Assembly: GCA_965217115.1 (NCBI GenBank)
Contig: OZ244239.1
Span: forward strand, 1,361,430 to 1,425,429
Length of the DNA: 64,000 nt
From: Bdellovibrionales bacterium
GTDB lineage: Bacteria; Bdellovibrionota; Bdellovibrionia; Bdellovibrionales; CAYMLA01
Direction of reading: 5' to 3'
Shown piece after piece: positions 14,407-64,000 of this stretch. Both the position numbers and the translations under genes were made by a program. Under the pieces are notes generated by a model that worked only from the letters and a program-made list of their open reading frames with translations, searched no databases and was not told where the DNA came from. Each line of letters opens with the position of its first letter. The stretch's first letter is position 1.

Positions 14407-15507
14407 CTAGTGACCTAGAATTTTAGCTGCATTTTTATATTGTGCTCGACGACGCAGTTTGGTCGGATACTGCTGCACGTTCCCTTTTAAATCCCAAATA
14501 AAAGCCATTTGTATCCAACCTTCTTGTCCTGAGTGGAAGCGATATTTTTTAAAGGCCTTAAGAGTTTTTCTGTCGAGACTTCTGTGGCCTGCACTGTTGA
14601 GCAGTTTGAAGTTTTTTAGAATTCCTCTTTTGGTGACGTAGGCTTGGAGGACGACAGTGCCTTCTTTTTTTGCAAATCGATCTTCTAAGCTGTAAACAGG
14701 AGGGCGGTTTCCACGGAGAGAGCGTAATTCTGAAATATCACGAACTTTACTTGGAAGGCTCTTTTGTAAAACGCCTTTTTGTTCCTTTTTCTTACTGACA
14801 AGGGCGTCCTGTTTAACTAATTGAACTTTCTTTTTTAGGGGTTTATTTTCAGGAGCTTTTTTTTCTTCAAGAGGTTCATCGACCCATTTTTCTTCGGCGA
14901 GGGCAATTTCTTGGCTGATCTCGTCTTCTAAGGCCTGTTCGTGGTTAAGGTCTTCCTCAGCATCCATTTGATCAAGTTTTTGGCGAATTTTATCGGCAAA
15001 AGAGTCACTGGCGAGCGTTTGCTCTTTTTTTGGTTGTTTTTTTTCAACGGGAATGGCGATGTCTGATGATAAATCAGAGGATTTGAGGGCGACGGGGGGG
15101 AGCTTCTTTTCAGGAAGTCTCTTTTTAGAAAGCCTCTTTTTAGGAAGCTTCTTTTTAGGAAGCTTCTTTGCAATGAAGGTTTTCAGGATTTTCTTTTTTG
15201 GTTTTGGGGTTTTGAGTTTTCTTACTTTTTTTACGATAGGCACAGTTTTTTTGGCCCTCTTAGCTCTCACAGTTTTCTTGGGGGCAAGGGGAGTTGGAGC
15301 GATAGATTCATCTTTGATTTGTGTTTTTTGAGCTAAACGGGTGGGCTTGGTGGAGGTGGGCGCAATTTCAAATTCAATAGTTCCCTGGTTAAGGGGGCGC
15401 AGCTGATCAACGGTGACCCAGCTGAGAACAGCAAAAAAAGCAAAATGCAAAACACCTGAAAACAGAAAGTAGCCATTAATTTTTTCGTTATCCCAATGAC
15501 TCCACAT
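14407..15507 (-). CDS. TonB-like energy-transducer protein
   Basis: N-terminal TM helix, Lys/Pro-rich spacer (KKLPKKKLPKKRLSKKRLPEKKLPP), and a C-terminal TonB-type domain (PPVYSLEDRFAKKEGTVVLQAYVTKRG...). I prefer the ATG at 15507, preceded by GGAG, to the GTG at 15534. Confidence 0.7.
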   Translation of the reverse strand: MWSHWDNEKINGYFLFSGVLHFAFFAVLSWVTVDQLRPLNQGTIEFEIAPTSTKPTRLAQKTQIKDESIAPTPLAPKKTVRAKRAKKTVPIVKKVRKLKTPKPKKKILKTFIAKKLPKKKLPKKRLSKKRLPEKKLPPVALKSSDLSSDIAIPVEKKQPKKEQTLASDSFADKIRQKLDQMDAEEDLNHEQALEDEISQEIALAEEKWVDEPLEEKKAPENKPLKKKVQLVKQDALVSKKKEQKGVLQKSLPSKVRDISELRSLRGNRPPVYSLEDRFAKKEGTVVLQAYVTKRGILKNFKLLNSAGHRSLDRKTLKAFKKYRFHSGQEGWIQMAFIWDLKGNVQQYPTKLRRRAQYKNAAKILGH

Positions 15508-15604
15508 GGCTTTATCTCCAAAAAATAAATTCACCTGATGGAAAATACATCAAGAATTGGGCCAAGCTAAGGACGAAGAGAATTGCTGAGGGGAGAAATC
15601 TTTT

Positions 15605-15646
15605 GAAAAAAATACACAAAATAACGCAATAAGAATAAGTGCGTTA
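15605..15646 (-). terminator. Possible intrinsic terminator between the repeat region and the TonB-like gene
   Basis: Read on the minus strand: taacgca-N11-tgcgtta followed by ttttgtgtattttttt. The stem is only 7 bp. Confidence 0.35.
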
Positions 15647-15657
15647 AATAAGTTTAA

Positions 15658-15922
15658 GGTTCTTTGTGATAAATAGTGGAATTGTTCCCAAGAGACCCAT
15701 TGACCCATTGATTGAATAGGGCCTTTTTTTCTAGAGTCTCTCCCAAAAGAATCCAGTTCTTTTCGGCGAGTTTGGCTTGGCGACTTCCATTGCATTTCTC
15801 TGCAATGGAAGGTGACAAACGGATGTTTGAGCAAGAAAAGGGCTGGATTCTTTTGGGAGAGATTCTAGAAAAAAAACGGGTCATCAGAAAAAACTGTCTC
15901 CACTATTTTTTGTCATAAAGAG
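15658..15922. mobile_element. MITE-like non-autonomous element with nested inverted repeats
   Basis: The outer ends are imperfect inverted repeats: ttctttgtgataaatagtgga at 15660 and tccactattttttgtcataaagag ending at 15922. Inside is a near-perfect 26-bp inverted repeat. No transposase is present. Confidence 0.4.
15731..15868. repeat. 138-bp long-hairpin core: 26-bp arms matching at 25 of 26 positions, plus an inner 10-bp hairpin
   Basis: The left arm ctagagtctctcccaaaagaatccag (15731..15756) is the reverse complement of the right arm ctggattcttttgggagagattctag (15843..15868) with one mismatch. The arms are flanked by T7 and A8 runs. The inner hairpin ttccattgca-tttctc-tgcaatggaa is at 15785..15810. 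Confidence 0.85.
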
Positions 15923-16092
15923 TCCAGTTCTTTTCGGCGAGTTTGGCTTGGCGACTTCCATTGCATTTCCCTGCAATGGGAGGTGACAAACGGATGTTTG
16001 AGCAAGAAAAGGGCTGGATTCTTTTGGGAGAGATTCTAGAAAAAAAACAGCTCATCAGAAAAAAATTGGCTCCACCATTGTTTGTCATAAAG
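15752..16092. repeat. Two-copy tandem direct repeat, period about 171 bp
   Basis: 15752..15922 and 15923..16092 align almost base for base (tccagttcttttcggcgagtttggcttggcgacttccattgcatttc...gtcataaag) with a few substitutions and a small indel. The second copy lacks the left hairpin arm. Confidence 0.85.
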
Positions 16093-16153
16093 AATCAAAT
16101 TTAATCTGAGACCTATCTCTGTGGGAAAAGCAGTTCTTCCTTAGAGTATTTAA

Positions 16154-16759
16154 TTAGAGTGAAGATTTATTCTCAATAACTTTATGAACAAGGCCATACT
16201 CCACGGCATGATTAGCATTCATCCAGAAATCACGGTCACAGTCTTTTTCGATTTTCTCCAGTGGCTGTCCCGTTTCTTCAGAGAGAATCTTGTTTAATTT
16301 AGATCGTGTTTTAACAATCTCATCGGCAGTGATTTCAATACTTGAAACAGACCCTGTAACGCCACCCTGAATAAGAGGTTGATGAATCATGAATTCACAA
16401 TTTGGCATTGTAAGTCGGTTCTTTTTTTCAGGGGCTTGCAAAATAATAGTAGCAATACTTGCGCAGAGGCCGGTACAAATAATTTTCACATCAGGTTTGA
16501 TAAAACGGATTGCATCGTAAATAGCAAAACCAGCATTGACAGATCCCCCTGGAGAATTGAGATAAACAGAGATGCTTTTTTTATCGTCATCAGCTTCTAA
16601 TAGAAAAAGACCTTGAATAAAGTCTTTAGCTGTTTTTGCAGAGATCGCTTCAAAGAGAGTTAATTGACGGGTTTTTAAAAGTTTTTCATTAAAAGAAATC
16701 TCTTTTTCTTTTTTTTCATCTTGTTCTGAAATGATTGGTTGAAAATTAATAAGATTCAT
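16154..16759 (-). CDS. clpP: ClpP-family serine protease subunit, divergent paralog (ClpP2-like)
   Basis: YLNSPGGSVNAGFAIYDAIRFIKPDV, GLCASIA (Ser), MIHQP (His) and DRDFWMNA (Asp) are conserved. The N-terminal 35 aa are unlike canonical ClpP. Confidence 0.8.
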   Translation of the reverse strand: MNLINFQPIISEQDEKKEKEISFNEKLLKTRQLTLFEAISAKTAKDFIQGLFLLEADDDKKSISVYLNSPGGSVNAGFAIYDAIRFIKPDVKIICTGLCASIATIILQAPEKKNRLTMPNCEFMIHQPLIQGGVTGSVSSIEITADEIVKTRSKLNKILSEETGQPLEKIEKDCDRDFWMNANHAVEYGLVHKVIENKSSL

Positions 16760-47322: not shown

Positions 47323-47465
47323 ATAGGTCATGATCATTTGTCACTAACTGCTTCACTAGAGCTTAATACAAAAAGCTCTAAAGGGCATGACAGGGGTAAA
47401 GTTTCAGTAGAGTTAAAGGCTGCCCTTAAATCACTAGGTAGATGACCAACATCTACTCAGAGAGA

Positions 47466-47541
47466 CAGTGAAAATTTAATGACAAAAAAATGGCCAATCT
47501 AAATGATTGGCCATTTCTTATTGCTAGTAATGAATAACTGG
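47466..47541. repeat. 77-bp direct repeat, copy 1 (contains a 12-bp-stem palindrome)
   Basis: cagtgaaaatttaatgacaaaaaaatggccaatctaaatgattggccatttcttattgctagtaatgaataactgg is nearly identical to 48457..48533. On the minus strand the hairpin is followed by a T-run, so it is terminator-like. Confidence 0.85.
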
Positions 47542-47834: not shown

Positions 47835-48362
47835 ATGAAAAAGTTTTTGTGTTATTTGTTAATATTATTATCTACTGGGAGCGTTGCGTTAAGCACTGTC
47901 GTTGATGTTGAAGTCTTAAATTTAAGTCCTCCAAAATATGCTGAGTTTAAAAAACTACCATTGAGTGTCCAAAATTTAATGCTTCAAGAAGCAAAATTTC
48001 GGAAGAAGGCAAAGGAGATAAGAAGAAAAAAGGAAGAAAAAACGAAGTTTCAGATATTGTCTCTTACTTTTTCAAACAGACACGATCCTAGATGTGATGA
48101 CGATGATTCAGGTAATGATTCACGCTCTTGTGTGCCTAGATGTACTTGGAGACGTTCTGACGGGTCATGTATCTCACATGGAGCAGACTTTTGTAGCAAA
48201 AATGCGTCTTGTTCACCGAACTGTACTTGGAGAATCTCTGACGGATCATGTAACTCATATGATGAAGATTTTTGTGGTGAAGATGCTGTTTGTTCACCAA
48301 ATTGTACATGGAGAGGTTCTGACGGATCATGTAACTCATATGATTCAGATGTTTGTTTTTAG
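47835..48362 (+). CDS. Secreted protein with three tandem Cys-rich repeats (175 aa)
   Basis: GGGGGAG RBS, a signal peptide, a Lys-rich linker, then three units of C-x3-C-x8-C-x7-C (CxPxCTWRxSDGSCxSxxxDFC). Confidence 0.65.
   Translation: MKKFLCYLLILLSTGSVALSTVVDVEVLNLSPPKYAEFKKLPLSVQNLMLQEAKFRKKAKEIRRKKEEKTKFQILSLTFSNRHDPRCDDDDSGNDSRSCVPRCTWRRSDGSCISHGADFCSKNASCSPNCTWRISDGSCNSYDEDFCGEDAVCSPNCTWRGSDGSCNSYDSDVCF
48129..48359 (+). repeat. 81-nt tandem repeat (about 2.9 copies) inside the Cys-rich gene
   Basis: The units start at 48129, 48210 and 48291 (tgt tca ccn aay tgt acn tgg aga...). Confidence 0.85.
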
Positions 48363-48456
48363 ATAACTTTAAAAAAAATATAAATGAGTTCCAGTTGAAA
48401 GAGCTGGAGCTTGTCGAGTAAAACGAAGGGTTCAAGAGAGATCGCCTTTCAAATCA

Positions 48457-48533
48457 CAGTGAAAATTTAATGACAAAAAAAATGGCCAATCTAAATGATT
48501 GGCCATTTCTTATTGCTAGTAACGAATAACTGG
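48457..48533. repeat. 77-bp direct repeat, copy 2
   Basis: See copy 1. It differs by one extra A and one T/C substitution. Confidence 0.85.
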
Positions 48534-54331: not shown

Positions 54332-55603
54332 CTAAGCACTCTCTTCTTTGTCCTCGACTTCAGAGATCATTAGGGGGCGAGCGTTATTTTTAATAGCCTC
54401 TTCATTGACGATGACCTGCTTGATCTCTGGTTTCGACGGAATTTCAAACATAACATCAAGCATCGCCTCTTCAATAACTCCACGCAAACCACGGGCCCCA
54501 GTTTTACGCTTTAACGCCTCATGGGCAATCGCGCGAATAGCCCCATCTGTAAAGGTTAAATCCACGTCTTCATAGCTCAAAAGTTTTTTGTACTGCTTAA
54601 TCAAGGCATTTTTAGGACGAGTTAAAATATCCACTAAAGCATCTTCCTCTAAAGGGTCTAGAATTCCCACAACAGGTAGTCGACCAACAAACTCAGGAAT
54701 CAAACCAAAACGAGCCAAATCATCAGGTTCCAATTGATGCAGAATGTTTTCACAACTGTCATCCTTTTCCTTTTGAGTCTTTATGTTCGCAGCAATTCCC
54801 ATCGTTTTATTTGACACCCTCTTTTCAATAATTTTGTCCAAACCAACAAAAGCTCCACCAACAATGAATAATATTCCTGTCGTATCCACTTGAATAAATT
54901 CTTGCTGGGGATGTTTTCTTCCGCCTTTGGGGGGCAGACTAGCCATGGTTCCTTCCAGTATTTTCAACAATGCCTGTTGTACGCCCTCTCCACTCACATC
55001 GCGAGTGATCGAAGCATTTTCCGATTTACGAGTGATCTTATCGATCTCATCAATATAAATAATTCCCCTCTGGGTTTTTTCAACATCATAATCCGCGGCT
55101 TGTAACAAACCCAAAATAACATTTTCAACATCCTCTCCAACATACCCCGCTTCGGTTAGAGTCGTGGCGTCCGACATAGAAAATGGTACGTTCAAAATAC
55201 GCGCAATGGTCTGCGCCAATAATGTTTTACCTGACCCTGTTGGGCCAATAATCATAATATTACTTTTCTGTAATTCGATATCTTCTTTCTTAGAAATACT
55301 TAGAGCATTTATTCTTTTATAATGATTGTGCACTGCCACTGATAAGGATTTTTTTGCCTTCTTTTGACCAATGACATACTCATCCAAATGGTTCGATATA
55401 TCTACCGGTTTAGGGACAATCAACGAGCCTTTTAGGGTGCCTTCACGCTCCATTTCCTCATCAATAATATCATTACATAAGTCGATGCACTCATCACAAA
55501 TATAAACACCAGGGCCTGCGATCAGCTTCTTAACTTCTTTCTGGCTTTTACCACAGAAGCTACAACGAAGTGTTCCTGTTCCTATTGAATCTTTCTTGCT
55601 CAT
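54332..55603 (-). CDS. clpX: ATP-dependent Clp protease ATP-binding subunit ClpX
   Basis: Zinc finger [30 protein letters not shown], Walker A GPTGSGKT, and IGF-type loop region. Confidence 0.97.
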
Positions 55604-56214
55604 TAAATATTTCCTTTCGCAGATTTGCGGAATTCCACAATATTATCTATCAGTCCAAAATCCTTAGCTTCCTCAGCATTCATGAAATGATCACGATCCA
55701 AGGCTTGAGACAAGAAATCCTTGTCCTTACCCGTGTGGTGAGAATAAATTTCAAGAACTTTCTCCTTCAAAGACTTTAATTCCTTCGCCTGAATTTTAAT
55801 ATCAGAAGCCTGCCCCCCAATTCCCTGTCCATATACCATAGGCTGATGAACCATCACCCGGGAGTTAGGCATGCAATAACGCTTGCCTTTAGCTCCTGCC
55901 GCTAAAAGCAAGGACCCCATACTTGCTGCCATACCTACGCAATAGGTTGAAACATCACATTTTACGAACTGCATCATATCATAGACGGCCATTCCTGCAG
56001 AGAGACTTCCTCCTGGGCTATTTATGTATAAATGTATATCTTTTTCAGGGTTATCTACTTCCAAAAACAAAAATTGCGCTAAAATAGAATTTGCTACGTC
56101 ATCGGTTATCGGCGAACCAACAATGACAAGGCGATCTTTTAATAAACGAGAGTAAATATCATAGCTTCTCTCTCCCCTTGCTGTCTGCTCAATTACATAA
56201 GGCACCAACGTCAC
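55603..56214 (-). CDS. clpP: ATP-dependent Clp protease proteolytic subunit (canonical)
   Basis: [33 protein letters not shown] and MVHQP. GTG start after GAGGAG. The TAATG junction overlaps clpX by 1 nt. Confidence 0.95.
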
Positions 56215-63910: not shown

Positions 63911-64000
63911 GGTTCTTTGTGATAAATAGTGGAACTGTTCCCAAGAGACTCATCTTGAGGGCTCTCTTTTAAAACTATCCATGGATAACAGCGTTGTTAC
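63911..64000. mobile_element. Left end of a second copy of the MITE-like element; runs off the right edge
   Basis: 63911..63949 matches 15658..15696 at 38 of 39 positions (ggttctttgtgataaatagtggaaYtgttcccaagagac). The following gggctctcttttaaaactatccatgg is a diverged version of the hairpin left arm. Confidence 0.45.

Follow-up and report, generated by a model that had tools for sequence, protein, structure and literature searches.

The locus between the orphan clpP2 gene (16154-16759, minus strand) and a TonB_C-domain gene, whose likely start, from sequence reading, is at 15507 on the minus strand, holds a set of nested and partly repeated palindromes, and the question is what these represent and how they came to be there. 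The window, by which we mean the whole 64-kb stretch of DNA analysed, is ordinary bacterial chromosome with a G+C content of 38.9%, and carries rpsB-tsf-pyrH-frr-uppS-cdsA, priA, lexA, tig and an opp-type transporter, together with a canonical clpP-clpX-lon cluster at 51.6-56.2 kb. The element spans 439 bp (15658-16096), and the evidence set out below indicates that it is probably a transposable element of the non-autonomous kind (MITE), from a family not described before. The first-pass annotation of this DNA had proposed a MITE-like element, and that reading is supported by the finding of further copies and of a candidate 8-bp target-site duplication, with no Rfam family and no coding signal.

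The element contains the strongest inverted repeat of the window, with no other coming close. Its left 26-nt arm (15731-15756, plus strand) has a single forward occurrence, and the reverse complement of this arm is found at 15843-15868 and at 16014-16039, with one mismatch in each case and no match in 100 shuffles, which bears out the 25 of 26 matching positions reported for these arms in the first-pass annotation. Its further structural description holds as well: the three layers that it distinguished (a hairpin unit, outer inverted repeats and a duplication) are all present, the arms extend through their T7 and A8 runs to 41 nt with 93% complementarity, and the inner hairpin is present with 11 perfect base pairs. 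Folded as RNA, 15716-15884 gives a stem of about 46 bp without interruptions, capped by a small multi-branched core. The features of the element and its flanks are collected in Table 1.

Table 1. Features of the element, its immediate flanks and its second left end, in window coordinates.
Feature	Position	Strand	Basis or remark
Weak terminator-like hairpin, TAACGCA … TGCGTTA, with T-rich tail	15606..15645	-	Read from sequence
Candidate target-site duplication, left copy (AAGTTTAA)	15650..15657		7/8 direct repeat with 16097-16104, just outside the tips
Left terminal module 'M': tip GGTTCTTTGTGATAAATAGTGGAA, then near-palindrome GGAATTGTTCC	15658..15700	+	Recurs at 63911-63953
Left spacer, from end module to long arm	15701..15723	+	Read from sequence; partly pairs with 15877-15884 in the fold
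T7 run and left long-hairpin arm	15724..15764	+	41 nt, 93% complementary to 15835-15875 and to 16006-16046
Core with perfect 11-bp inner hairpin	15765..15834	+	Hairpin 15784-15794/15801-15811
Right arm and A8 run	15835..15876	+	Inverted-repeat and arm scans
Right spacer and internal right terminal repeat (…TCATAAAGAGTC); last 8 nt form the duplication junction	15877..15924	+	Alignment
Second, partial unit: last 12 nt of left arm, core, right arm, spacer, true right terminal repeat (…TCATAAAGAATC)	15917..16096	+	Tandem duplication of 15746-15924
Candidate target-site duplication, right copy (AAATTTAA)	16097..16104		8-mer background test
Left terminal module, second copy	63911..63953	+	41/43 identity

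The right part of the element arose by internal duplication. The segment 15746-15893 is repeated at 15917-16064 with 97% identity over 148 nt and a period of 171, in agreement with the duplication of about 171 bp lacking the left arm that had been described before, and the repeat runs on, with a 1-nt indel, to 15924/16096. An 8-nt microhomology, AAAGAATC, is found in the left arm (15746-15753), at the duplication junction (15917-15924), which reads AAAGAGTC, and at the right tip (16089-16096). To judge from its sequence, the junction would be the signature of slippage or unequal exchange at this microhomology; exchange between its left-arm and right-tip occurrences would thus give a second unit with core, right arm and right end and no left arm. 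Between the two units, arm and core show differences at 2 of 126 positions, versus 7 of 44 in spacer and terminal repeat (Fisher p = 0.0012). This uneven divergence, a point against the MITE reading with its local duplication, is not explained by a recent neutral duplication: it means either that selection, or conversion among copies, holds the hairpin part uniform, or that recombination with a different copy produced the second unit.

The left boundary of the element is GGTTCTTTG at 15658 (GGTTCTTTGTGA…), and G15658 was assigned as the left tip because it is the base at which similarity stops in all three copies; the right tip, C16096, is defined by symmetry alone. Over its outermost 12 nt, the left tip agrees with the reverse-complemented terminal right tip at 10 of 12 positions (GGTTCTTTGTGA versus GATTCTTTATGA), and gaps are needed further inward, so that the outer imperfect inverted repeats of the first-pass annotation are real but weak. 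The terminal repeats are only about 70% alike, compared to 93% for the internal arms; this is the reverse of a typical MITE and speaks against the MITE reading. The composite 15658-16096 is bounded by an 8-bp direct (not inverted) repeat that agrees at 7 of 8 positions, a level of match seen in 0.11% of all window 8-mer pairs with the same spacing and in 1.2% of those that are AT-rich. In sequence, this repeat looks like a target-site duplication, at one locus, and its single mismatch is a further point against the MITE reading. Around the inner hairpin module alone (15724-15876), sequence reading gave no evident target duplication.

Two further copies were found. The 43-nt left end recurs in the same orientation in the last part of the window (Table 1), where it is followed by a different sequence that runs off the window end. 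The similarity of this following sequence to the arm is not significant (p = 0.12), and it may be a diverged arm; the module may mark the left end of an autonomous parent with a transposase gene from 63981, and a minus-strand ORF ending at about 63951 is equally possible. The other copy was reached through its translation: in a phmmer search of 1.84 billion representative proteins, the 76-aa ORF 15654-15884 (minus strand) finds a 104-aa protein, P0124, which is 93% identical over all 76 residues and unrelated for the remaining 28, a tail that is not encoded anywhere in the window. P0124 also encodes the left terminal module (…GNSSTIYHKEP), its similarity ends at the same boundary as that of the 63911 copy, and it runs through right arm, core, left arm, spacer and left end in the order seen at the clpP2 locus. 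P0124 is recorded on a contig of 2,170,531 bp, the length also recorded for the contigs of the window's own ClpP2 (P0001) and TonB-like protein (P0121), and from this agreement we infer that P0124 represents a second full copy elsewhere in the same genome.

When the changes in P0124 are read back to DNA, one turns an arm G:U pair into G-C, one falls in the inner-hairpin loop, two lie in spacers and one gives GGAACTGTTCC in the end module, as at 63911. The centre of this module is GGAATTGTTCC at 15682-15692 and the perfect palindrome GGAACTGTTCC at 63935-63945, which the P0124 copy would, from its back-translated sequence, also carry. This end-module palindrome could be a protein-binding site. 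Known copies amount to at least two full loci, the second of them deduced from P0124, and one partial; since the protein search reveals a copy only where an ORF through it was called, the real number is probably larger. The first-pass annotation held that a single-copy sequence would count against its MITE-like reading, and the element is not one, given the 63911 left end and a P0124 copy that appears to belong to the same genome. The 63911 copy, the flanking 8-bp repeat and the junction microhomology were absent from that annotation.

These copies bear directly on the idea that the element is purely the product of local duplication and inversion at one locus, without mobility. A partial tandem duplication at a microhomology is indeed a local event, but a purely local origin is contradicted by the second full copy elsewhere and by the third end copy 48 kb away, and we find this explanation hardly credible. 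The properties by which MITEs are recognized are, by comparison, largely represented: the element is small (439 bp, built on a basic unit of about 265 bp, against a usual limit of about 600 bp) and without a transposase, has terminal inverted repeats at its tips (10/12, weaker inward), is flanked by a candidate target-site duplication (7/8) at one locus and is dispersed, as the P0124 copy, presumably of the same genome, and the 63911 left end indicate.

The detection of a copy through a protein search raises the question of whether the palindrome might be incidental to a family of small P0124-like proteins of 76-104 aa. The 76-aa ORF does start with ATG, and an ORF 93% identical to it was called at another locus. 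However, among the 1.84 billion representatives the 76-aa ORF has no homologue outside this genome, bar two low-complexity chance matches; the ORFs of the element, none longer than 94 aa, belong to no Pfam family; and an exact look-up of six of them in the protein collection found none present. All four differences between the two units within the ORF frame change the amino acid, as does every difference observed, and P0124 reads into an unrelated flank. Similar ORFs are moreover found on both strands because of the palindrome. The conservation of these ORFs as proteins, which the first-pass annotation had named as evidence against its reading, was therefore not borne out, with no Pfam family and no homologue beyond this genome. 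We consider a coding origin highly improbable, and P0124 itself looks like an erroneous gene call across one copy of the element.

A more substantial alternative is that the element is a structured noncoding or cis-regulatory RNA family expressed from the plus strand, antisense to clpP2 and the TonB-like gene, with the copies as paralogous RNA genes. The plus strand folds clearly better than the minus strand, both for the unit 15716-15884 (-96.8 kcal/mol, z = -13.9, versus -76.7 kcal/mol) and for the whole element (-194 versus -157 kcal/mol). All three imperfections of the 41-nt arms form G:U pairs on the plus strand, the sole stem difference between the units (15809 A/G) is likewise G:U-compatible on that strand, and the copy-to-copy differences that can be seen avoid or improve stem pairs. 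Nevertheless, no more than 3-4 sites show this G:U bias (p about 0.1). At gathering thresholds, Rfam matches only one tRNA in the window and none in the element, which settles the Rfam check proposed in the first-pass annotation; permissive searches, on both strands, return just plant miRNA models of a generic long-hairpin kind, all below threshold (best score 41 bits versus 65). Scans for a sigma-70-like promoter on either strand in 15300-16400, and for a consensus terminator after the hairpin on the plus strand, found none. As the hairpin has T upstream and A downstream on both strands, it forms no intrinsic terminator in either direction. The flanking 8-bp direct repeat, the absence of the element from relatives and from all collections searched, and a second unit devoid of the left arm also argue against an RNA gene, and the pattern of duplication and dispersal favors spread at the DNA level. 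Taken together, these data make an RNA family unlikely as the primary nature of the element.

We return to the MITE reading and to the site that such an element would have entered. On the minus strand, between the element and the TonB-like gene, lies the terminator-like hairpin of Table 1 (7-bp stem, 9-nt loop), corresponding to the weak terminator noted in the first-pass annotation: its stem and T-rich tail are seen, but the consensus terminator scan left it unflagged. Removal of the element and of one copy of the flanking repeat leaves a 199-nt intergenic region in which the clpP2 stop codon is followed by this hairpin, which is also present when the reconstructed empty site is folded. Lying just past the insertion site, the hairpin was probably the terminator that clpP2 originally had, and this layout places the element in the probable 3' UTR of clpP2. 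There, the duplex of about 46 bp might act as an RNase III substrate or as an exonuclease barrier, with a possible influence on clpP2 mRNA processing.

The nearest named ClpP relatives are from Pseudobdellovibrionaceae and Bacteriovoracaceae MAGs (54-64% identity), which tentatively places the lineage as probably Bdellovibrionota-like. The second clpP gene of the window (55603-56214) is the canonical one, followed by clpX and lon, and the orphan clpP2 is paired with a gene for a 553-aa protein with a weak A_deaminase match, a pairing kept in three relatives (L002, L003 and L004). In these relatives, whose ClpP2 proteins are 76-82% identical, the next gene abuts or overlaps clpP2, leaving no gap, and the downstream genes differ, which weakens a clean contrast between presence and absence of the element. 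The TonB-like gene has an orthologue (47% identical) on L006 with other upstream neighbours. The element is thus lineage-specific and outside any conserved operon architecture.

The 500-nt gap upstream of this TonB-like orthologue contains an unrelated long palindrome of its own (L006:5640-5830), with 20-nt arms at 95% and a folding energy of -75 kcal/mol (z = -7.3). A conserved regulatory hairpin upstream of the TonB-like gene was considered and rejected, as the L006 sequence is unrelated to the element and its better-folding strand is the opposite one relative to the gene. In this lineage, palindromic elements between genes may be frequent and change quickly. Just upstream of a more distant TonB-like homologue, four tandem repeats of 17-18 nt (CGAYAGGGCGAGAAACCC) are found at L007:9891-9961.

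Even as a mobile element, the sequence might have been put to use by its host, with the 46-bp hairpin serving as a plus-strand structured RNA or processing signal, or with the left-end module serving as a dispersed protein-binding or regulatory site; the palindrome GGAAC-T-GTTCC is perfect in two of the three copies of that module. In the former case, the G:U bias and the slowly evolving stems would reflect selection, and in the latter a regulatory site would have been spread by transposition. We regard such host use as quite unlikely.

The transposition history that we propose starts from a basic unit of about 265 bp, a palindrome from tip to centre that would comprise, in order, a terminal repeat, a spacer, T7 and a 41-nt arm, a core with a small hairpin, a second arm with A8, a spacer and a terminal repeat. 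This unit would have taken the AT-rich sequence AARTTTAA, which lies between the clpP2 stop codon and the weak terminator, as its insertion target, duplicating 8 bp. The empty site is predicted to read …TCTCAGA-TTAAAYTT-ATTTAACGCA… on the minus strand. After or during spread, the 171-bp internal segment would have been tandemly duplicated by slippage or unequal exchange at AAAGAATC. A DDE transposase with its gene elsewhere in the genome would have mobilized the element in trans; both transposition as the origin of the element and the family of this transposase are deduced from the features described here.

A Pfam scan of window ORFs of at least 110-120 aa, informative for those ORFs that have a Pfam hit, found no transposase or RAYT (Y1_Tnp, IS200-like) domain; within that scope, the first-pass observation that no transposase lies nearby holds. 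The lack of a detected parent insertion sequence or transposase in the 64 kb is a point against the MITE reading. To cover public collections, exact-pattern scans with 20-mers from the arm or the left end were run against GTDB representative genomes, JGI metagenomes and IMG/VR. The arm 20-mer has one match in the GTDB representatives, inside an EamA-like coding ORF of an Aminicenantaceae MAG (L001) and taken as chance, and no match in JGI metagenomes or IMG/VR. On the same contig, about 700 bp off, a second 26-nt stretch (L001:2423-2448) matches the element at 92%, on the other strand and not colinear. The left-end 20-mer likewise has no match in IMG/VR and a single match in the metagenomes, inside a long membrane-protein ORF (L005), also taken as chance. 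Blastn against plasmids and phages returned short chance matches only, and a search of one paper library for MITEs in Bdellovibrio found nothing relevant. The element is absent from all public collections searched.

The element is most likely a fairly ordinary kind of genomic parasite. It adds an undescribed MITE family in an uncultivated lineage, and no new class of biology, and it flags a source of assembly and annotation artefacts.

Other repeats were observed in the window. A block of about 77 nt is repeated at 98-100% identity, 991 bp apart (47465-47541 and 48456-48533); a terminator-like hairpin (AAAAAAATGGCCAATC…GATTGGCCATTT) is part of this block, and each copy directly follows an ORF without a Pfam hit. 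Three tandem 81-nt repeats, 67-74% identical, occupy 48126-48368 at the 3' end of the ORF 47835-48362, and, 81 being a multiple of 3, look like a repeated peptide module. Dispersed direct repeats are found at 38937-39002/39802-39867 (91%, 66 nt) and at 41214-41365/44116-44267 (72%, 152 nt). The 38-45 kb region is rich in ORFs without a Pfam hit and includes a gene for a DUF4423 protein.

Among known systems, REP/BIME sequences and RAYT-mobilized REPINs resemble the element in being extragenic palindromes, often tandemly amplified and located 3' of genes. The element might accordingly be viewed as a REPIN- or BIME-like palindrome, spread by a RAYT via single-stranded hairpins and then tandemly amplified as in BIME clusters, and its long hairpin, its intergenic location downstream of a gene and its local tandem amplification all suit that view. 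Its unit of about 265 bp is, however, far longer than REP doublets, and these systems depend on a RAYT, for which no Y1_Tnp match was found in the window. REP/REPIN spread is not known to leave a target duplication, so that the 8-bp flanking direct repeat is unexpected. With this repeat present and no IS200-like domain in the window, we hold a REPIN-like origin to be very unlikely.

The Correia elements of Neisseria and the ERIC/IRU elements of enterobacteria are, like the element, intergenic palindromic units, of about 100-160 bp, which fold into long hairpins when transcribed together with adjacent genes. RNase III cleaves the transcripts of Correia elements, whose target duplication is TA and which have 26-bp terminal repeats of their own. 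In contrast, the element has neither of these features: its candidate duplication is of 8 bp, its well-matched arms lie inside the element and not at its ends, and it is unrelated to them in sequence, with no Rfam or BLAST match. The Correia/ERIC likeness suggested in the first-pass annotation therefore extends to architecture, and not to sequence, duplication length or tips.

The GG tips together with the 8-bp duplication would, by analogy, fit a DDE transposase of ISL3 or IS6 type acting in trans. The IS6 family is characterized by GG tips and 8-bp duplications and has two known MITEs, of 227 and 336 bp (PMC7986276). The element resembles the IS6/IS26-family MITEs in its GG tips, its candidate 8-bp target duplication and its size; their internal cTGTt … caaa motifs are matched only approximately (CTTTGTGATAAA). 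IS6 elements move via cointegrates, and no IS6 transposase was found among the window ORFs.

ISL3 elements and a 187-bp ISL3-type MITE have been described with GGCTCTTCG tips and 8-bp duplications (PMC11448079 section 21; PMC6305408 Table 3). The tip of the element, GGTTCTTTG, agrees with this ISL3 tip at 7 of 9 positions, and its candidate flanking repeat has the 8-bp length of ISL3-type target duplications. Among the few references compared, the left end matches the left repeat of ISArsp7 at 14 of 24 positions, ungapped, and ISPst2-type ISL3 ends (GGGTAT…) differ. The 187-bp MITE, mobilized by ISL3 in Microcystis aeruginosa PCC 7806 (PMC11448079), has 9-nt terminal repeats only and identified parent ISL3 copies, in contrast to the tip-to-centre palindrome and 41-nt internal arms of the element, for which no parent was identified; beyond the tip, there is no sequence similarity between the two. 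The Microcystis MITE is, like the element, small, transposase-less and folded into a stem-loop, with 8-nt target duplications and GG.TCTT-type tips (GGCTCTTCG compared to GGTTCTTTG), and is mostly intergenic and present in multiple copies.
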